Source of the DNA: Octopus vulgaris
Taxonomy: Eukaryota
Direction: 5' to 3'
DNA length: 64,000 nucleotides
Assembly (NCBI GenBank): GCA_951406725.2
Contig: OX597819.1
Span: 91,946,001 to 92,010,000, forward strand
Below the pieces are notes generated by a model. It was not told where the DNA came from. It did no database searches and saw nothing but the letters and a program-made list of their open reading frames with translations. Below are positions 2,976 to 62,536 of this stretch, piece after piece. Every line of letters begins with the position of its first letter. The stretch's first letter is position 1. The position numbers and the translations under genes were made by a program.

Positions 2976-3078
2976 TATATCGGTGTGTGTCCGCATGTGT
3001 GTGTGTGTATTGTGTGTTCATGAAGAAATGATGTTTTTTGGCATTTACTTACATCTGATTTCAAAACTTTACTTGCAG

Positions 3079-3535
3079 GTATCAGTCAACGAGGAGAAGA
3101 TGAGTCTTTCAAGGGAAGAATTTGAATCATTAAGGGTAAGCCAGCCAAAAGTTGACCACCGTGCTGTAAAACCAACCTTATGCAGCAATTTAGTTGCTGA
3201 TCTACATAACAACAAGGGCCGTGGTGCTAAGCTCTTCGCTAAACGCCAAGCTCGATCTGAGAAATGGGTCGTTGATGACAAAAGTGTGAAAAGCCCATCA
3301 ACTCCTGAGGCAAACGTAAATATGATGAATGTACAGAATAAATTGTCAACCATGATTGAGACGCCAATGCCAATAATAAAACAAAAGCCACCGAGACCTG
3401 AGCAGTTGCCAAATGTACCAAAAGCGGTTCCAGTTCCAATCGTGAAAACAGATCTGAAGTCTGGCGGTCATGCTATAAATCTCGATGGACCCAACTTCAA
3501 TAGAAAGGCACGAGGATGGAATGCTCCTGCACCGA
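3079..3535 (+). CDS. Internal coding exon of a synaptopodin/myozenin (calsarcin)-like proline-rich protein
   Basis: Acceptor acttgcag ends at 3078; donor gtaagt at 3536; open frame VSVNEEKM...GRGAKLFAKRQARSEKWVVDD...PNFNRKARGWNAPAP. The motifs resemble the synaptopodin-2/myozenin GxGAxLFxKRQxRxEKxVVD and FNR motifs. Phase 0 start, phase 1 end. Upstream exons are presumably outside the window. Confidence 0.85.
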
Positions 3536-4438
3536 GTAAGTGTCTATTATTTTTTAGCAATTCATTTTTTCATCATTCGTAACAATACATTATAGTTCTT
3601 AATAACAACAGTTGTTGCTTATGTATTCGTTGATGAGTGCAGTCATAAGCCATGTGGTTAAGAAGTCCACTTCGCAGTCACATGGTTGCGGGTTCGATCA
3701 TAGTGCGCGTCACCCTGGACAATTGTCTTTTCATAGTCTCGAGTCAACCAATATCTCGAGTGGAATTTGGCTGAATAAAACAGATGTTCGATATATATAG
3801 GGAACAGTTTTTCTTCCAAACGTTTTGTATTGAAGACATGATTGCTGTCGTATTTAATAATTTTTTTAATGAAAGATATCTGATATTTCCTTTATGTTTA
3901 GTTTGTGACATAAACGTTCCTATGATCCTTGACATTTCAAGGCCTTCTCAGCATAATCTTCTGAATAAACTAATGCTCGGAAAGCGCTGGTGCTGCGTTT
4001 TGCAGTAGACATCAAGGGATCATGGGGATGTTGCTGCAACTGTAAAAAGCACCATCACTTGTAGGAGTTGCACCGGATACTACTTGTCACACCCTGTCGT
4101 AAATGTTATAAAACAGTGGATTACTCATTGGAAATCTTTAACCAGCAACGCTGTTATTAAAAAATGCTATTCAAAATAAATTAAATAGAGTTTATAAGAG
4201 AAATATTGTGTCATGATCTATGGGATTAATTGCCATAAACTTGCCCTTATCAATTTTCTTGAATTTTCTATACCTTCCCTTGCGTCTTCAGAGTTCTAAA
4301 ATATTTCCAGATGGATTATTGTTCTTTTAAAATTTAATTGATAAAACACAAATCAACATTGTGTCGCAAAGTAGAAATAAAGCATAATATAGTGTCATCT
4401 AGTCTATCTTTCAATGCAATAGTTAATAAGTGTAGTGT

Positions 4439-7602: not shown

Positions 7603-7954
7603 GTCTAATGTTATAATAAAAACCACATGGAAGATAGGGATATAAGGTGTGAAAGAGTTGCATTGCTCTGGTCAAGTCGCCCGACTGGATACGTACATAA
7701 CTAGATAATTATATGATAAAGTTTCAACAAGTAGAAAAACATTTGATCATCTAAGAGAGTAAAGATAACGTTATTATAAAAACCACAAGTCTTGTGAAAT
7801 ACAGCTACCCAAGGTTTCTACTTACGTATGTCAAGCAGCCGACTACGGGTCTTGTTCTCAGCTTGAAAAATGGCGAAATAAATCAATGCTTCCATCAAGA
7901 AACCCTGGGTAGCTGCATTAAACAAGAATTGTGGTTGTTTTTATAACATTAGAC
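7603..7954 (+). mobile_element. Short inverted-repeat element with decayed hammerhead motif
   Basis: 7771-7819 and 7603-7627 are inverted copies of 7898-7954. Motif cagc-TTGAAAA...GAAAC-CCTGG-GTA-gctg at 7859-7915. Confidence 0.5.
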
Positions 7955-8830: not shown

Positions 8831-9583
8831 CGCTTATATCTTACACGCATAGCAATGTATGCTGGAACATTAAAAAAATCATTCCTTATATGTATTGGCC
8901 AGTGGACCTAAGATTTATTCGATGAACATCATTTTGTATAGATTTTTTTTACGGTTTTAATAAGTATTTCGTTTGCAATTTTATATTCCAATCTTCTTTT
9001 CTTGTTTATAAACTAGGTTTTTATAAGTCTTACTAATTGGGGGATCTAATTTCTTTTTATCGTGCTATTGAAACTCTTCAAAACTTACCTATACAACATT
9101 TCGAATGCCGAATTTCGATATTTAAAATCTGTTTTAAATACATATGTTTTCCTGGCTTGAAAGTTTATCAGGATAACTATCCTCTTGGCCTTGGCCGCTG
9201 TCATATTCTGCATGACCAATATATATCAAATATCAAAGTTTATAACAAAGTTACTACCGTCGTAATGACTCGATTTCCGCTTGCTGTTCGTTGTGCATGT
9301 TCAACGGTACAACGGGACCAGCGAAATGGAAAATATTCTGTGAAATTAAAAAAAAAAAATTAGTTATAGTTAAGTCTTCAACAGAAGAGGAATGAAAGAA
9401 GAGGCTGTCTTCTTTTACAAACACACTTTAATACTAAATTTAAAACAAATTTCGGAAGTGTACTTGCCGAGCAAGTGTCTTGATCTGAAATTATATGTTG
9501 AGACTAAAATAATTGTAGTGTGGAAGAAATATATGAGCCATTCAAAAACACGCAAATTCTTAACTTCACTTAAACATTTATTA

Positions 9584-10256
9584 TTTGAAAATAGAAATAA
9601 TGCATTTCTAAATCTCTCAGAGAGATTTATGCATTAGCAGCACGATAAAGTGATAGTATGCTGTCAACTTAATGTAACAGTCCCATGAAAGGGAAGAATG
9701 CTACTGTTATTTAGCCCTAGGAAACACCGTTTCCTGTTGGACTTGACACATTTCCTGTGTCCTCATGTTTTCAAAGTGGAGATAAGCACCTCCACCCAGA
9801 AAAGCCAGCATTCAGAGACTAGTTTCAGAGTCATTGCTCATCATCAGTCTGGAGTAGCATGGCTTACTAGCTATCGATGCTGTCGATCACAGTAGCATTA
9901 AGTTGACAACATACTATCACTTTATCATGCTGCTACTGCAAAAATCTCTCAGAGATTTACTAATGTATTATTTCTATTTTCAAAAATCAGAAATGTATTT
10001 CACTTGAAATATATGTTTTCAAAGGCGAATAGGCATTGACAGCTAGCAAGCCATGCTACTCCAGACTGATAATGAGCAATGACTCTGAAACTAGTTTCTG
10101 AATGCCAGCTTTGCTGGGTGGAGGTGCTTATCTCCACTTTGAAAACATAAGGACACAGGAAATGTGTCAAGTCCAACAGGAAACGGTGTTTCCTAGGGCT
10201 AAATAACAGTAGCAATTTTCCCTTTCATAGGACTGTCACAGCAAGTTGACAACATA
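9584..10256. mobile_element. Hammerhead-bearing non-coding element, inverted and permuted pair (monomer about 343 nt)
   Basis: A(9584-9674) B(9677-9880) A'(9896-9984) spacer B'(10033-10237). Direct repeat aagttgacaacata at 9900 and 10243. Confidence 0.8.
9813..9851 (-). ncRNA. Minimal type I hammerhead ribozyme motif
   Basis: Minus strand caga-CUGAUGA-ugagcaaugacucu-GAAAC-UA-GUC-ucug. Stem I caga/ucug, palindromic stem III ACUAGU. The + strand copy at 10062-10100 has CUGAUAA. Confidence 0.75.
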
Positions 10257-11558
10257 TCATAAGACTGTCACAGCAAGCTGACAACGTATAATTTATTATT
10301 TGGTATCAAAATTTTCGTCGCACCAACTGTGACCTGGTCATTGATGCTGTTCCATTGCAATACTATATGTTTAAGTGAAGTTTACAGCCGTTGTGTGTTT
10401 TTTAATGATTCGTGTATGTCTTCAACACAGCAATCGTGTATAACAAATTTTTATGTTAAAACAGAAAAGCATATAAAAATATTAGTAATGGGTTTATAAT
10501 TCTGATATTTCGGTAATTAAGGTGATTGGCAATGAGCCGGCTAGTTTTAGCACTTGTTCACCTCCGGTTCACGCGATCTGTGATGTGAATTCTTGACCTG
10601 GTGCGAAGAAAATATATCCTGAAATGAGATTTTGTTCTGTATTCTATCGTTTTTATGAGCTCGTTGTCCGTGCAACCATTATAATAACACATATCATACA
10701 TTTATTCAATGGAATATATTTAATTCAATGAAAAAAAAAGAAAAAACAAATCAGGAACAAAACGAAACAATACAAAAAAGACAAAATAAAACACAGTATA
10801 CACATACAAAGTATATACATAGAAAATAATGACTAGTAATAAACTGTTGGATATATAGGAGAGTGTTTTCGACGTTTCGGATAATAGACATTTGAGTGGC
10901 ATGTACTTAAATATCGTGTAGGGTAAGATCTAGTTAATAAAACCGAATTATTAGCAGTGGATATGTTGGTTTGGTTTTGCGTTTGTCGCCCCCACCCCTG
11001 GGAATGGTCCCAATCCATCGCGTGTTCGGTCGGTGCTAGTTTAGAGTTAGTAATAGAGAAACTACAAAGGACATCTATTCGCATAATCGGCAACTACAGA
11101 ATAACTGGACAAACAAAATAATCAAAGAATTCAATGTATGGAAACATTCGGGGTTAGCAATCCAGTTTTTACACTAGAACAAGTCTGAATATGTTTCAAG
11201 CTTACAAATATATCATAATTACATAAAAATGCTATATATATATATACATATAAACTGAGCTATATGTGAATATATTTTTATGAAGAAGACTTTTATGCGA
11301 AATTGTATTGTACTGTACTGGATGTGGTAGCTGTTTCATCCATTTTGCGCTTAATTTGTATGGAAAACTGCGAACAACAAATATTTGCTTCTGTGTCGAT
11401 GTAACTTAACCGTAAAATTTCTTGTTGGCATCTACTTGATTCTAAACAATGGTTAATTAAATTCAGCTTTGAACGAAATTTCGTTTGAAATTCATTTCAA
11501 AATTACAGCAATAATAATGATAATGATGTTAATGATGATGATGATCTTGATAATGACA

Positions 11559-20660: not shown

Positions 20661-20855
20661 TGGGGTTTAGTACACTAGTGATCTAAACGAATAGGTACAC
20701 TGAGTAAGTGCTAGAATTGGTCATCCATTAGGTTCCAAGTTGACAGCTGAGGCTGGAGGTAGGGATCCATATTACTCTTCCGTGTTAGCAGGTTTACATT
20801 AGAGGAAAAGGACATGAAAAACCAAGGCAGGACGAGTATCTCAAGTCATTTATAA

Positions 20856-21053
20856 TATTATTTACATTATTTACATTTGATGGATATTTGTCCTCATCTT
20901 GTTTGTTGCTAACACAACGTTTCGGCTGATATACTCTCCAGACTTCATCAAATGCCCACGAGCATATGGCGTAGTAGTTAAGAGCGCGGGCTACTAACTC
21001 CAAGATTCTGAGTTCGATTCCAGGCAGTGACCTGAATAATAATAATAATAATG

Positions 21054-21090
<37 letters not shown>

Positions 21091-21269
21091 CAACATCGAA
21101 AAATACCTTAGGAATGAGAACCCAGGTTCAAAATTTCCCCAAGACGCCCGATGAAGGCTGGCGGGTACATCAGCCGAAACGTTGTGTTAACATCAAGCAA
21201 GATGAGGACAAATATCCGTCAAATGTAAATAATGCACATAATTCCTCTTCTCTTAAATATAGAACTGTA
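20856..21269 (+). mobile_element. tRNA-headed element with (AAT)n spacer and 3' hammerhead, preceded by an inverted copy of its 3' part
   Basis: A-box tggcgtagtag (20967), B-box gagttcgattcc (21010). Hammerheads at 21143-21188 (+, CCGAUGA) and 20911-20956 (-, UUGAUGA). Same family at 43918-44350. Confidence 0.75.
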
Positions 21270-21960
21270 TCATTTATAATAATTTAATTAGAGTAAGGTT
21301 AATTTGAAGTCTTACAACTATTTCTGGGATATCCCAAGTGATAGGCTAGCATGTCTGTACGCTGAGTATTCCGTCATCAGAGACAAAGTGAGTATGTATG
21401 GAAATTCTAAACAGGGGAATTCACAGTTTATAAGGAATAAAATAGAAGAATAAAGAGTAAAAGTAGATATAAGAAAACAGACTGGATAATAAAAGTTCAC
21501 AATTCATCTTTTCTCAGAGGGTATGGAGGTAAATCCGTACTTCCGTGAAGGTACAGGTCCTTATGCTTCATCCTAAGTAAATCCAGGCACACTAGCTAAC
21601 CACTAACATGAACACATCATTCGAAATACTACCTACATTCTGTTTGGATTTACCTACGATTAAGCGTAAGGACCTATTACCTTCACGGAAGTACGGATTT
21701 ACCTCCATACCCTCTGGGAAAAGATGAACTGCGAACTTTTATTATCCTATATGTATTCTTATATCTACTTTTACTCTTTATTCTTCTATTCCATTCCTTA
21801 TAAACTATGAATTTTCCTGTCGAGAACTTTCATAATATTCATTTTGTCTCTGATGACGGAATTCCCAGTGTAGGGACATGCTAGCCTATCACTTGAGATA
21901 TCCCAGAAATAGCTGTATGACTTCAAATTAACCTTAATCTAATTAAATTATTATAAATGA
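21270..21960. mobile_element. Fold-back element, arms about 316 bp, a hammerhead in each arm
   Basis: 21270-21585 inverts 21645-21960. gucu-CUGAUGA...GAAAU-AGYU-GUA-agac at 21309-21384 (-) and 21846-21921 (+, stem I mismatch). Confidence 0.8.
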
Positions 21961-22743
21961 CATGTGATACTCATCTTGCTTTGGTTTTTGATGCCATTTT
22001 CCTCTAATGTATATATACATACGTATATATATAAATTTATGCATGTTTATAAATTATATGTATATTTATTGTATATTTATATAATATCTGTATTAATGTA
22101 TTTTGTTAATTTATGTACATTTATTAATTGTATCTTTATTTTCGTATTTGATTTACAGGATTCTTGACGTGAACTAGTGTGTTGAAACAAATCTTTATCA
22201 TTATTGGCATAATGAGTCTCTCAAGATACAACAATATTAATTGTAGCGTTAATAGCAGTTGTTGACTTGGGTATACGCCCACAGATTAGTAGAAGTTTTG
22301 AGGCTTGAGAGCACTGAAATGACCAATGACACACAGACACGAAATCAGGACGTAAAGAGATCAAACATGACACGATGTGCCACTTCGTCTAGCTCTTCAG
22401 ATTCTATCATTAAGCTTTGATGAAATCTGTGTAATTTCTAAAACACTATTCTAAGACAATTATTTTGTGCACATGCTACCGGGGCATTTATAAAGAGTAA
22501 TAATTATACACACTCGTATACTAAAGAAACGTACATAGCTATTATCTGAATGTAAAGTATATTCATCCACGCATTTATATGTATGTACACACTAAATTAC
22601 TGTCACATATTCATAATCTTTGGAATTTGTCTTTTCTTAGAGAAAGAATCAAGTCTTTCTAATTAGCAAGTTGAAGTCTGCGAAGAATTTTTCAATATTT
22701 CGAAGAGAAACACGTACAAATATACATACGCACGTGCCTATCA

Positions 22744-28124: not shown

Positions 28125-28672
28125 TGTCATTATTCAGTTTTATTTTAAAATTTCTTGCCAATAGAGAAAGAACCGGTTGTAACTTAGATTCAACGTTCCT
28201 TCATTGGAATTTCAACACCAACAACAAGGTATATGTATATGGATGTATACGTGCAAATTTGTAGGTTTTTGTTTTATGTATGTATTCTTATGCGTGTACT
28301 TGTATATCGAAACATGCTCATATATACTTAAATTATAAACTTCTGGTAAGTTTTACAGATGTTTACAGTTCCAATGACGGCTTGGATCTGTAGTATTCGA
28401 ATCAACTTTCTCTTTTCTGGTTTTGAGACGCCTAATTTCTCAGGATTGATATTTAGGCAATGTATTACACATACCAGTGCACCAATAATTACAGGTGTAA
28501 AACTGAACTTGTAATCTGGATAGAGTAACTGCAGATTTCTCAATAGTTCAGCGTAGATATTACCTTTCTCGCTAATCTTCAGCTTTATGTTAACATCTGG
28601 TGGGTAGTTAATTTCCCCATTGTACACAGTTTCTCTTCTCTATCCCAAATCATTATATCAGGTCTACTGAGT
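28125..28672 (-). mobile_element. 3' fragment of a restriction-like endonuclease (RLE) LINE
   Basis: SRPDIMIWDREEKLCT...PDVNIKLKISEK..IYAELLRNL...PVIIGAL, a PD-(D/E)xK domain. Bounded by (TATG)n. Confidence 0.8.
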
Positions 28673-29411: not shown

Positions 29412-30193
29412 CTTGTATGCGTTCATATATATATATATATATATGCGTATATTTTGTATATATGTATACATTTCTATACGAAACTCGGGTGGCTAATTTC
29501 CAATATGTACTTCTATTTTCATTAATGAGGTAATTGTTGTTTACTTACTAAATGTCCAGGCCCTTCCCCTCCCCATTCCTGATAGCCCAAAATAAATAGA
29601 TTAAGTAGAGCACTAAACTGGTTTCCGAAGTGTGCTAATTAACAGCAAATATAAGGAACAAAATAGACAAAGACATAATTAAATTAGTAATTGTTGGCAA
29701 CATGTCGCAATGAAAAATAACGTTACAAAAAGTAAATAATGTAATGATTAGTAATTAACTAATAAGCAATTAGAATTTATCTGCGTATCCAATCAGATGT
29801 TAGAACAGGTGGAGCTCCGGATAACGTTATTTGTATTATTTCGTTATCTTTCTTAAGTTCTGAGTTCAAATTTCATCCACGTCAGTCAATTTTTGTTTTT
29901 TTGCTTTCGTTGTTATGAGGTTGACAAAATAAAATATTGTAGTTGATATAAACTACAATACTCACGATCCCAAACTGTGTAGCTTTGTATCAAATTTGAG
30001 AAATTCTATTCCGTTCCTTGTCAATTTCTTTTTCTTTTAATCTCTCCAAGAGTTCGAGTACTGGTCGTTGAAAAAGTCGACAACTATCCGTCCTTCTTCG
30101 CGAATTCGTGACCTTGTGCCAATGTTGGAAACCAATTATTATCTATATTTTCTGATTTCAATTCTTATTTGTCTTTTTTCTTTTATTTTCCAG

Positions 30194-30429
30194 CGCCAGT
30201 TGTACCGCAGATTCCACCGCAAGCAGGGAAGAAAGCACCGCCACCACCGGTAGCTCCGAAACCCAGCAGAGGCAAAGGGCAACACACCCGTTCGTCTTCT
30301 GACCAATTAGGTTACTGTTCGGACGTAGATCACAGAAGTCAGACGCACAGTTTCCGGCAAAAGCCGATGTTTGCCCCGACTCCATTTGCTTCAAGTGCAC
30401 CACGTGACTTACCTGGTAGTGATATGTGA
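30194..30429 (+). CDS. Terminal coding exon of the same gene (T-PVVPQIPPQAGKKAPPPPVAPKPSRGKGQ...RDLPGSDM*)
   Basis: Polypyrimidine tract plus ttccag acceptor ending at 30193. Phase 1 matches the 3535 donor (a+cg = Thr). GC-richer, proline-rich frame with PPPVAPKP; TGA at 30427-30429. Confidence 0.75.
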
Positions 30430-35041: not shown

Positions 35042-35580
35042 AGTAATGTTCGTAGGTACTTCAACATGGCTGTTCCGTTCGAACGGACTTTACTGCGATT
35101 TTTTTCACCTCAAGAAGACATCCCCTCTAGCTGGTTAACGATGCATACCTGCATCCGAAATATTGCCAGCAAGGGAGCGAAACCTTTCCACAAGTCCTTG
35201 ATTTTACAGCAAGCAAAAAAGGTAGTTCCAGAATCTCTGTAAGAGATTAACACAGTAGTTGTACTCGCCAGTAATGTTTGTAACCATTTCAACATGGCTG
35301 TTCCGTTTGAACGGACTTCACTGCGTTCATCTCTTAGAGAGGTTTTAGAACTAGCTTCTTTACTTGTTGCAAAATCAGCGACTGTGTGTCGCTTAAATTT
35401 ATATATATTCCGAGTAGAACCGAGTTACCGCCATCTCTAGCGGATGAGGTGTCCAGTATTGAAGAGAGGAAGAAATAGCCCGAAACCAGGCTGGTCCTGT
35501 CGCCAGAAGTTGGCAGGAGTTCGCTCCCTTTCTCGCATTATATCGGAAGGAGGTATGCATCATTAACCAGCTACAGGAGG
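35042..35580. mobile_element. Rearranged element with direct and inverted segments and a decayed hammerhead
   Basis: Direct repeat 35042-35097 / 35270-35325; inversions 35124-35190 / 35511-35579 and 35191-35238 / 35339-35389; TTGAAGA...GAAAC-CAGGCTG-GTC at 35459-35496. Confidence 0.55.
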
Positions 35581-35876
35581 TGTCTGGTATTTCCTTTCAC
35601 GCACAAAACGGACGAAACGAACTCAGCTACATTGTATAGACACCGTAGCTGTTGATATATACGAAATGAATAAATATGGATGTTTTTACACCTATATAAA
35701 TATCACGAATACGTGTATGGCTGCACGAATGTGTGTATATGTGGTGTGCATATGTATACACACATGCGCATATATAAGAATATATACATATTTTCTTTTA
35801 ATTTATAAATATACACATATACACATACACACACACGTTCTAACACATACATATATTCACATGCATTACCTATCTG

Positions 35877-57382: not shown

Positions 57383-57444
<62 letters not shown>

Positions 57445-57450
<6 letters not shown>

Positions 57451-58094
57451 AATATAAGAGAGTGGTCACTATATGGCTCACTCTAGCACTAGTTAATCCA
57501 AAAGGTTTCAACCACAAAAATACATGTTTCCCATGAAAGTCAGTACGATTGTTAGCTCACACGGACAGGGCAAATAAAAAATAACAAAAATACAGATTAT
57601 TTTGGGACAATTGTTTCGCTATTAATGAATTAAATGTAATTTTACTTACAAAAAAATCCACTTGTAGCTCCTCAGCCAAAACTATCTGGATGAAATCCAC
57701 TCAATCACACGCCAGATTTTACCATAACGATAAATACACGTGTGGTTCAATTGATTACATCCGACGTTATAATTCAAATGCCCCTACTAACAGCGCGCCA
57801 AACTTTCACGGAAAACAAATACTGCATTTAGAAATAAATGTAGCATAATTATAATTAATTAATAAGGGTGAGAGAATTAGATACTAATTTAATAGTATAT
57901 CTATTCAACACCAAGTGGCCTAGTGCACTAGGCCATATAGTGACCACTCTCTTATATTTATTTTGTAAAAATATTATAATATATTATAAAATATTATAAT
58001 AATCCAGGTTTCTCGGAGCACTAGGCCACTTGGTGTTGAATAGATATACTATTAAATTAGTATCTAATTCTCTCACCCTTATTAATTAATTATA
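57445..58094. mobile_element. Hammerhead-bearing non-coding element, inverted and permuted pair (monomer about 535 nt)
   Basis: 57445-57477 inverts 57932-57964, and 57850-57926 inverts 58018-58094. Flanked by (TA)n. Confidence 0.8.
57600..57681 (-). ncRNA. Type I hammerhead ribozyme, intact core
   Basis: Minus strand uuuugg-CUGAGGA-gcua...uagc-GAAAC-AAUU-GUC-ccaaaa. Confidence 0.8.
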
Positions 58095-58960
58095 TATATA
58101 TATATATATATATTTATTCATTTATGATATTCCTGGACCGAGCGATGCGTTGTGTTCTTAAATAAAAGACTTCCTCTCACGTTGCTCCAGTCCACTCATG
58201 TGGTTAAACTGAGTAATCCTCTTACCGACTGGCGTTCTCCCCTAGCAGGGAATATATACGCCATGGAAACCGCCAGACTGGCCCTCATAGGAAGGAACTT
58301 TACTCTTTTCTATTACATAACACACGCACACACACATACATAATGGATGTAGGTCAGAATTTCCGGAATTGTGCTTTGTGTTGTTGTTCAAAGTGATCTA
58401 CTATGCTCATAGAATTTGTCGGCTGAATAAGTCGCTGAGTTTTACGCAAATACCTTTAACCCTTAATGTAATTCTCAGTCGGAATCAGCGTTCCGCACAA
58501 ATTCCTAATGCACGTATCCCATGATGCAGCAGCATTTGAGACAGATGTACTCTGTGTGTTAAAACGTATATGTAATCTCACTCGATTTTGTGAAATCAAT
58601 ACAGCATTTCGATATGAAATAGAATATCTATAAGGTTTCATTCTTCACACAAAGAGCAAATGACGGGTATACTGAAGCAAAAAAATTGCAATCGAAGAGA
58701 ATTCAGTATTATTCAATCGTATAGCTACTAATGTTAACGTGTGCATTAATCCCAACTCAAACTTTCATAATAAAATACGCCATGTTTATTTAAATATAGA
58801 TAGAGTAAATATAATATGTAGTTCCGTTCAACTTTATTAGAGCCGAACAACGTCGTGGAGTTGGTTGATTTAATTATGATATTATAGCCGTAACGTATAT
58901 TTCAGCGACTGATATCTTATATCTTGGATATCTATATTGTATAATGTAACATTTATATAA

Positions 58961-60843: not shown

Positions 60844-60959
60844 TGCTTACTGCACCTAGGTTTCCCAAGCGGTCACCCATCTACGTACTGACTAGGCTCG
60901 ACGTTGCTTAACTTCGATGATCAGACGAAAACCAGTGCTTTCAACGTGATATGGCCGTA
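60844..60959 (-). pseudogene. 5S rRNA-derived sequence (pseudogene or SINE3-type head)
   Basis: Minus strand tacggccatatcacgttgaaagcactggttttcgtctgatcatcgaagttaagcaacgtcgagcctagtcagtacgtagatgggtgaccgcttgggaaacctaggtg matches metazoan 5S rRNA with substitutions; first few nt missing. Confidence 0.88.
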
Positions 60960-62536
60960 TATATATATATATATATACATATATATATTTACACACACAC
61001 ACAGACGGGAAAATCGCACTTTTGATCAAAGGTTTGTCCCATTAGAGCTTACCCGGGCTACGACAACAAAAAACGACAACAGAGGACGTATGGTTTGTTA
61101 AAAGAAGCCAATTATACATTCTTGTTGCTACTTGCACGGCTGAATTATACTTGTCTGTGGCATTTATTTTTCTACCGAAGATACTAAATAAGGCTTAAAC
61201 CTGTCTAACTTTGACTCAAATATTAGCCGAGAAAGAAAACAAAACGCAACCAAAAAAAAAAAAGCAAAACAACAGCAACAAAAAGAAAAAGTTATTAATC
61301 GATTAATATATTTCTTTCCATCTAATTTTTGATTCAAGTCTAGTCTTTTTCATCGTACCAAGACATACAAAACATAATATATACTTTCAGCCAGTTAACT
61401 ATTATTTATCATTGGCATGACATATTGGAATTATCTATTGACAAGTCGACTTATTGAGAATTAAATGCTTCTGGCAAGCAGAGTCGACACGGCTACCGGT
61501 GTTGAGATAAAAACAGTCAACACTTCTGCCGAATTCCGATCGATTCGGAAAGCTGTCATTTTAATTCATTTCAAAATAACTTTTCTCTTATGAGAAATTG
61601 GAAGAAGGGAGAGGGCAGGAGAATGGTGTTGCTGCTCTCTAATCAATTCAGATGGATTTCATTTGATTTAAATTGATTACCTAGGTAAATTTGCAAGATG
61701 CCATTTTCAGTTCGCTTAAATTGCTAATTTGACCAAAGCGTGCGATTAAAAAAACATTGCCATATAATGTAAATAAAACATAATGGTTAAATAATGGCTA
61801 AATATTTTACATTTGATTAACTATGAGAAATGGACAAGCTGAAGGGAAAACGAGAAATATAACATTAATTTTCTAATTAATGACAGAATCTATTTGAGAA
61901 CACATATACAAAGGAAAAAATTAAAAAAATAAAAAAATATAAAAGGTGTAAGTTCCACATTTATATTCACATTAATCTTAATTATATATACTTAATATTG
62001 ATTGCATATATTTATTAATCATAATAAAGAATCATTAACTAATTACTCAAATATAACACACTCGTGGCATTCTTCATTTGACGAAATCAGGATATTAGCG
62101 CTTGGGAGAATTAATAAAATAATATAAAAATAATCATGGCTAAGAATAAAAACGAAGGGAATCAACTTTTCAAGTTTTATATCCATGCATGTATAGAAAT
62201 ATTAAGCATCTAGGCAAAATAAAATTTGCACACACTTACACGCACACACACACACACACACATATAAATACACGCATACATAGAAACTATACCCATGTAT
62301 GAGTATACATATACATATACATATATTGTTATATAAGTATATACATATATTTACACAGACTCACACACATGCATACAAATAGGCGCTGCCGTGGTTGTGT
62401 GATAAGAAGGTTGCTTACCAACCACATGCTTCCGCGTTAAGTCCCACTGCATGACATTTTGGGCAAGTATTTTCTACTCGGGCCAACCAAAGACTTGTGA
62501 GTGGACTTGGTAGATGGAAACTGAAAGAAGTCTCTC

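Follow-up and report, generated by a model that had tools for sequence, protein, structure and literature searches.

Mobilization by the machinery of Penelope-like elements (PLEs) was proposed for non-LTR retrozymes (PMC7229834; bioRxiv 10.64898/2026.07.22.740005, accessible portions of both). Fixed outer ends combined with variable inner ends are regarded as the mark of target-primed reverse transcription for non-LTR elements and PLEs alike (PMC8557442, in part). For purified Penelope-like protein, the accessible sections of PMC11167929 describe cutting and extension of both DNA strands (Poseidon-type protein), a bias toward AT-rich DNA, the use of mainly uncleaved RNA and starts at two internal RNA sites, which give the tail; a dimer is predicted. 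Permuted and overlapping inverted halves were reported for Pen3 (PMC3846280, in part). How tandem and inverted Penelope structures are formed and how integration is finished are stated to be unresolved in the available sections of PMC8557442 and PMC11167929. PLEs of the Hydra clade, including Hydra-1_Obim from O. bimaculoides, occur in Octopus, target (TA)n and bear hammerheads (PMC8557442, in part).

The element analyzed in this study is a 650-base non-coding octopus sequence (57445-58094), in which two head-to-head arms lie inside a TA repeat and which carries a hammerhead motif. Positions are those of the window, i.e., the whole 64-kb stretch of DNA analyzed (Table 1). On the plus strand, the order is (TA)n, rc(A), rc(C), rc(B), a 5-nt insert, A, D, B and (TA)n, rc being the reverse complement. 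The lengths of A, B, C and D are 33, 77, 372 and 53 nt, respectively. The minus-strand arm B-C-A is 482 nt long, and A, D, B and C add up to 535 nt, the sum (482 + 53) that the first-pass annotation had given. Its reading of A-D-B on the plus strand and B-C-A on the minus strand also agrees with the coordinates, as the inverted copies of A are identical at 33 of 33 positions and those of B at 77 of 77. This identity of 110/110 between the arms points to a young insertion, with the proviso that homogenisation of inverted arms is possible. The element had been counted as the third permuted-inverted one, and two further loci, E1 (~9574-10290) and E2, indeed have a like layout, which gives three loci of this two-arm plan in 64 kb.

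The palindrome noted earlier at the strand switch is present, but it spans 20 nt instead of the 18 nt (57917-57934) first assigned to it. The 5-nt junction insert is part of neither A nor B. Together with the following 4 nt, it forms a sense repeat of the start of B; those 4 nt also begin A, and the palindrome includes this 4-nt microhomology common to the starts of A and B. The last 4 nt of B in arm 2 are common to the TA repeat. The window contains 54 tracts of at least 8 TA units, and a target duplication is unreadable within the (TA)n repeat that flanks the element. No second copies of A, B, C or D were found elsewhere in the 64-kb window by blastn (word 7) and nhmmer. The inferred 535-nt unit has a GC content of 31.6%, and its longest ATG ORF, which is antisense, encodes 52 aa. 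The native arm 1 folds with a z of -6.2, and none of 100 shuffles was as stable. Pol III terminates at runs of T. Given the 8 runs of at least 4 T on the sense strand of the unit, SINE-type transcription of the unit by Pol III is unlikely.

Table 1. Positions of the element, its parts and its neighbors in the window (strand as + or -; a point where no strand applies).
Feature	Position	Strand	Remarks
E2, distant relative with the same plan	53551-54445	.	473-nt inferred unit; hammerhead in both arms
Decayed GIY-YIG endonuclease, Hydra-clade Penelope-like by its linker motif	56489-56868	+	Outside the element; frameshifts and stops
(TA)n microsatellite, left flank	57383-57444	.	Inferred target site
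A, 3′ end of arm 1, end site I1	57445-57477	-	161 nt past hammerhead cut; exact inverted match
C, 372 nt	57478-57849	-	Single copy in window; carries hammerhead
Type I hammerhead motif	57599-57682	-	Core intact; stem III palindromic; cut predicted after 57606
B, 5′ part of arm 1	57850-57926	-	First bases form 3′ strands of predicted helices P2/P1
20-nt palindrome at strand switch	57916-57935	.	With 5-nt templated insert, 57927-57931
A, 5′ part of arm 2	57932-57964	+	Exact inverted match
D, 53-nt AT-rich bridge from A to B	57965-58017	+	Single copy in window
B, 3′ end of arm 2, end site I2	58018-58094	+	Exact inverted match
(TA)n microsatellite, right flank	58095-58114	.	

The hammerhead that had been read inside C on the minus strand was recovered there (57682-57599). 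Its stem I has 7 bp, its stem II has 4 bp and holds a long insert, and its stem III is palindromic. All 3 hammerhead matches in the window were strong ones, of a grade seen in 1 of 30 block shuffles, while looser matches arose in 15 of the 30. The fold of the motif has a z of -4.16, with 1 of 200 shuffles equally stable. Rfam gave no hammerhead call on the element, where only hairpin-driven sub-threshold matches occurred; at gathering level, its only match in the window was a 5S rRNA. The element has one hammerhead, with no tandem array at the locus. By analogy with amphibian hammerhead motifs of such helix III, which cleave poorly singly (PMC8969392, in part), this single hammerhead with its palindromic helix III is likely a poor cleaver alone.

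Two further features of C were observed. A 16-bp long-range helix is predicted between 57540-57525 and 57817-57802 (-), where it flanks the hammerhead domain; both of its non-Watson-Crick positions are G-U pairs. A GC-rich box followed by TTTGAA is found at 57802-57793 and 57780-57773 (-), and its E2 equivalent is at 54031-54058 (+). Both relatives have retained the box and TTTGAA, which lie 100-130 nt upstream of the hammerhead. They resemble E2F/CDE-CHR cell-cycle promoter motifs and could be a candidate internal promoter.

Comparison with E2 showed that the plan of the element is shared. E2 is inserted in (ATCT)n/(TA)n, its arm 1 is one full unit plus ~8 nt, its arms are 96-98% identical, and its type I hammerheads have a 12-nt palindromic stem III. 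The unjoined arm 1 of the element matched arm 1 of E2 with a z of 5.4 (0/300 shuffles), and arm 2 matched the end of arm 2 of E2 with a z of 3.4 (2/1000 shuffles); the reverse-complement control of the arm comparison had a z of -0.6. When the joined units were opened at the hammerhead cut, the score was 256, which was reached by none of 300 shuffles and none of 200 window stretches. The region downstream of the hammerhead alone was not significantly similar to E2 (z 1.3, 56/500 shuffles), and the unrelated family E1 reached a z of 2.3. In a local-alignment scan, E2 was outside the top 25 of 1276 windows.

Moreover, the same domain is predicted in both relatives. Its helices P1 and P2 are stacked and link the end of C, which holds their 5′ strands at 57515-57511 and 57492-57485 (-), to the start of B. 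Enclosed by them are one hairpin, the first of the end sites and the linker at the position of D; beyond these come another hairpin and the other end site. The predicted pair probabilities of P1/P2, which close the A-D domain, are 0.73-0.98 in the element and 0.42-0.94 in E2. By a count made by eye, 3 of 13 pairs differ on both sides between the two; a two-sequence MAFFT alignment of the element with E2 was poor and was left out of the pair counts.

I1 is where the left arm stops in both the element and E2, and I2 is where the right arm stops. The distance from the cut to I1 is 161 nt in the element vs. 131 nt in E2, that from I1 to I2 is 130 vs. 101 nt, and that from I2 to the next cut is 244 vs. 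241 nt. The inner arm ends are not equivalent between the two, as the arms of E2 start at other places. Thus, judged from these two related loci, the outer ends appear to be fixed. All four ends sit 13-17 nt after a CUU directly behind a predicted stem, a motif that is unique to those places in each unit; the A end of arm 1 is 14 nt beyond a predicted hairpin. The motif was placed at both ends in 1/3000 and 2/3000 shuffles, frequencies that overstate the support because the motif was defined after the four ends had been seen; shuffled units had means of 1.8-2.6 such motifs. In an automatic test for a hairpin before the end, 3 of 10 ends passed vs. a background of 10%, with one of the ten coordinates misplaced. 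Both ends are AT-rich, as are D and many other stretches of the unit.

The locus is very probably a non-autonomous, Penelope-dependent insertion, likely of the retrozyme type. With less confidence, we favor an origin from two cDNAs, each primed by a different strand of a single target cut and begun at its own internal start site. A Penelope-type RT/GIY-YIG protein acting in trans would bind an RNA that exceeds one 535-nt unit and is uncut at the hammerhead, either an uncleaved multimer or a ligated circle, and would cut both strands in (TA)n. One strand would prime at I1 and copy A, C and B (482 nt), and the other would prime at I2, 130 nt further 3′, and copy B, D and A (163 nt). Both start sites would lie 13-17 nt past a predicted stem, within a CUU-led AU-rich stretch. 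The two cDNAs would be joined at their 3′ ends via the 5-nt templated insert and a microhomology of 2-4 nt, giving the palindrome, and each cDNA would then serve as template for the second strand of the other. By analogy, the biochemistry of the Poseidon-type protein fits this two-strand scheme.

Two priming events, one per strand, are inferred since both outer ends are 3′ ends, and the permuted look of the locus would result from each cDNA having run past the start site of the other. The hammerhead cut site lies within arm 1, which means that the RNA copied into this arm was uncut or re-ligated; a cut linear monomer is ruled out as that template. For both arms, a template of B-C-A-D-B or A-D-B-C-A is needed. 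An uncleaved multimer, a circle or two RNAs can all supply it, and the locus fits each alike. The closed loop of 482 + 53 nt in the first-pass annotation thus stands as a 535-nt sum; a circular RNA, however, is unneeded, given that a longer uncleaved RNA explains the layout equally well, and a circular template appears doubtful to us. A wider model is similarly doubtful. In this model, octopus has large retrozymes with circular RNA and two stem-anchored start signals 100-130 nt apart, one per DNA strand; the cDNAs would pass the start of each other and anneal, by which the insertion would store the whole permuted unit and second-strand synthesis would be solved. If this is true, such loci record in the genome the late steps that are missing from the picture of Penelope transposition.

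The main rival to two priming events is self-priming on an antisense template, which we consider unlikely. The element would be of the same kind and one continuous strand, as the cDNA would fold back at the palindrome and then copy the antisense template. The 20-nt junction palindrome is in line with this explanation, and the accessible part of PMC3846280, in which an 18-bp case is reported, explains palindromes of this sort by self-priming, with an antisense strand as the template. However, only 9-10 nt mirror arm 1 before A and D follow, and D is absent from arm 1. Thus, a second and longer template would be needed even under self-priming. Moreover, the junction of E2 has a 3-nt overlap and no palindrome; that of E1 has a short templated piece (both read by eye).

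Quite improbable is twin priming in the style of L1, in which one linear RNA would have been primed at its one true 3′ end and, opportunistically, within an internal AT-rich stretch through pairing with the TA target, so that the second end would be no dedicated start site. As Ostertag and Kazazian reportedly put forward in 2001, twin priming in L1 yields an inverted 5′ segment from the second DNA end, with microhomology at the junction. An inverted 5′ segment is also described as the product of twin priming in PMC2246262 (in part), both ends of the present element are AT-rich, its B end has 4 nt in common with the target, and the identity of the arms at 110/110 positions is expected of one template. 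Many stretches of the unit, including D, are AT-rich, however, and still both ends are at positions equivalent to those in E2. In addition, the RNA must exceed one unit under this explanation, too.

It is very unlikely that D stems from the target or from captured host DNA and that several short, truncated insertions, each separate, are clustered at the locus with no 535-nt unit. Capture of host DNA was reported for Penelope elements (PMC3846280, in part), and D is single copy, AT-rich and internally repetitive. On its own, it showed no similarity to its E2 counterpart (z 0.2, 415/1000 shuffles), and reverse-complemented D aligned as well as D (110.5 vs. 105). However, the spacing and order of the landmarks match those of E2, and D, whose position corresponds to the start of segment Z in E2, has a positional equivalent in both arms of E2, where it is element sequence. 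Without D, the match of the unit to E2 falls from a z of 4.25 to 1.86. The last base of D also extends the predicted helix P2, which forms even without D (~0.7). The collinear E2 and the stretch at the position of D in both of its arms thus support the 535-nt unit. For the permuted unit with D inside that had been proposed earlier, the collinear E2 and the kept predicted helices speak in its favor, though the window holds no other copies of this family. The placement of D inside the unit is therefore supported indirectly, by position and predicted structure at two loci.

An assembly or library fold-back artefact, with which the 100% identical arms and the microsatellite flanks would agree, can practically be discarded, as the structure is permuted and not a mirror, and the same layout is found in E1 and E2, whose arms, at 87.5-98% identity, show that these elements have been ageing in the genome.

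Penelope integration becomes testable by counting where elements are short and abundant and their two ends are far apart and separately recognisable. Counts of ends, arm lengths and junctions in the octopus genome could separate two-strand priming from self-priming and a circle from a multimer, and 3 loci in 64 kb lead us to expect a large genome-wide sample. If the ends prove unfixed, the element would be an ordinary non-autonomous Penelope fragment.

Other classes of elements were rejected. DIRS elements are defined by ITRs and an internal region complementary first to the start and then to the end (PMC3846280, in part); here, each strand shows the opposite order of complementarity, and the two termini do not form an inverted repeat with one another. 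A MITE or TIR transposon does not apply either, as the left end pairs with one internal copy and the right end with another. An autonomous PLE is rejected as the ORF for RT and GIY-YIG is absent from the element.

A decayed PLE ORF had been noted ~550 bp upstream of the element, with no visible sequence link. The distance from the GIY-YIG remnant, as delimited by its homologue match, is ~580 nt, and the absence of a link was upheld in two tests of the element against the 3′ region of the remnant (z -1.2). An exhaustive search identified 15 proteins as homologues of the remnant at E up to 0.001. The profile was built from 14 of them, the repetitive protein P0017 being left out, and with this profile the remnant was the only such copy in the window. 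Pfam found no match with 4 remnant fragments, and a word-index search with 63 aa of the remnant returned none of 18 candidates. PLEs of the Hydra clade are characterized by a C-terminal GIY-YIG with a CxCX5C linker and no CCHH motif (PMC8557442, in part). This linker is intact in the homologues P0013, P0014, P0016 and P0022, and one Cys is changed in the remnant, which on the basis of this motif is assigned to the Hydra clade. Compared by eye, the 3′ end of Hydra-1_Obim does not match the element, and 1 of 6 published Hydra consensus ends (Crog) has an 11-nt AT-rich stretch in common with it, which is a weak lead. Also by eye, a decayed hammerhead-like core of the remnant was seen near 56917-56951; it resembles that of Hydra-2_Amil and serves as a lead only. 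The adjacency of element and remnant is most simply explained by shared (TA)n targeting.

Further surroundings were recorded. Two exons of an octopus PDZ/calsarcin-domain gene (3043-3546 and 30190-30426, +) match P0001, and an ORF of the window shares 99% identity with an Octopus sinensis protein that has a PDZ/calsarcin domain. The second exon reaches the C-terminus of the protein, and from the end of the coding region it is ~27 kb downstream to the element. The window has a single 5S rRNA copy (60844-60962, -; 86.7 bits), which adjoins a (TA)n tract and is possibly a retrocopy. The remnants at 45649-46005 (+), 28331-28639 (-) and ~55000-55400 (-) resemble non-LTR retrotransposon endonuclease ORFs and a mariner-type transposase.

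The window also contains other hammerhead or inverted elements. The arms of E1, a permuted two-arm element of another family, are 87.5-93% identical; E1 has a hammerhead-like core near 9847 (-) and lies within an older inverted repeat (9512-9585/10359-10434). The members of a third family, at 20858-21269 and 43917-44348, have minimal hammerheads at 21148 (+), 20951 (-) and 44229 (+). Their ends differ by ~35 nt, which is the textbook tail, and the longer of the two is preceded by a hairpin and a CUU-led stretch. In the 20858-21269 copy, a tRNA-derived SINE-head lookalike was seen by eye between the arms (~20960-21035), with (AAT)n and then the 3′ end of the hammerhead behind it; it is possibly a SINE with a Penelope-type tail, and ARAGORN and Rfam had no match there. 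The same copy splits a ~790-bp fold-back element (20797-22009), whose palindrome (21270-21960) is 85% self-identical, and a 12-nt direct repeat (20846-20857/21270-21281) may be the target duplication. A 407-nt repeat (27428-27833/43525-43930) is 98% identical between its two copies, the second of which runs up to the left margin of the hammerhead element at 43917. Additional clusters of short inverted or direct repeats are located at 51198-52339, 35042-35585, 7767-7950 and 2762-2979, and the scans found no hammerheads in these clusters.

Similar to non-LTR retrozymes, the element has a non-coding, low-GC and self-paired unit with a type I hammerhead (PMC7229834; bioRxiv 10.64898/2026.07.22.740005, accessible portions), and the short palindromic helix III suggests dimeric cleavage on the predicted structure. 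Different from retrozymes, whose units are 150-450 nt long (PMC8969392, in part) and are found in tandem arrays of at least two hammerhead units, the inferred unit of 535 nt is outside this range, and the locus has one hammerhead and an inverted arrangement. Thus, it departs from retrozymes in tandem array and unit size. The word 'inverted' is absent from the main text of PMC7229834.

With EN+ PLE insertions, the element shares a head-to-head inverted 5′-truncated copy and a junction palindrome (PMC3846280; PMC8557442; PMC11167929, in part) as well as unequal ends, a (TA)n target and a hammerhead upstream of the ends (PMC8557442; PMC11167929, in part). The layout as such is of a known kind, since inverted copies, junction palindromes and permuted inverted halves have already been published for Penelope (PMC8557442; PMC3846280, in part). 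Different from EN+ PLEs, which in the accessible accounts have a 30-40-nt tail on one end, the offset between the ends is 130 nt in this element and 101 nt in E2, a spacing that is apparently new; neither two ends 100-130 nt apart nor these octopus elements were described in the literature searched, which lacked most subscription papers and Repbase. The length of A, 33 nt, is set by the start of arm 2, and hence A is no evidence of a tail. Also unlike EN+ PLEs, the element has no ORF, and each of its ends is behind its own predicted stem and CUU-led stretch. It differs from the 5′ inversions made by L1 twin priming in that it has no poly(A), ends at conserved internal sites and requires a template of more than one unit. 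Together, these comparisons suggest that the element works like a non-autonomous PLE and resembles a non-LTR retrozyme, while being a plain member of neither group.
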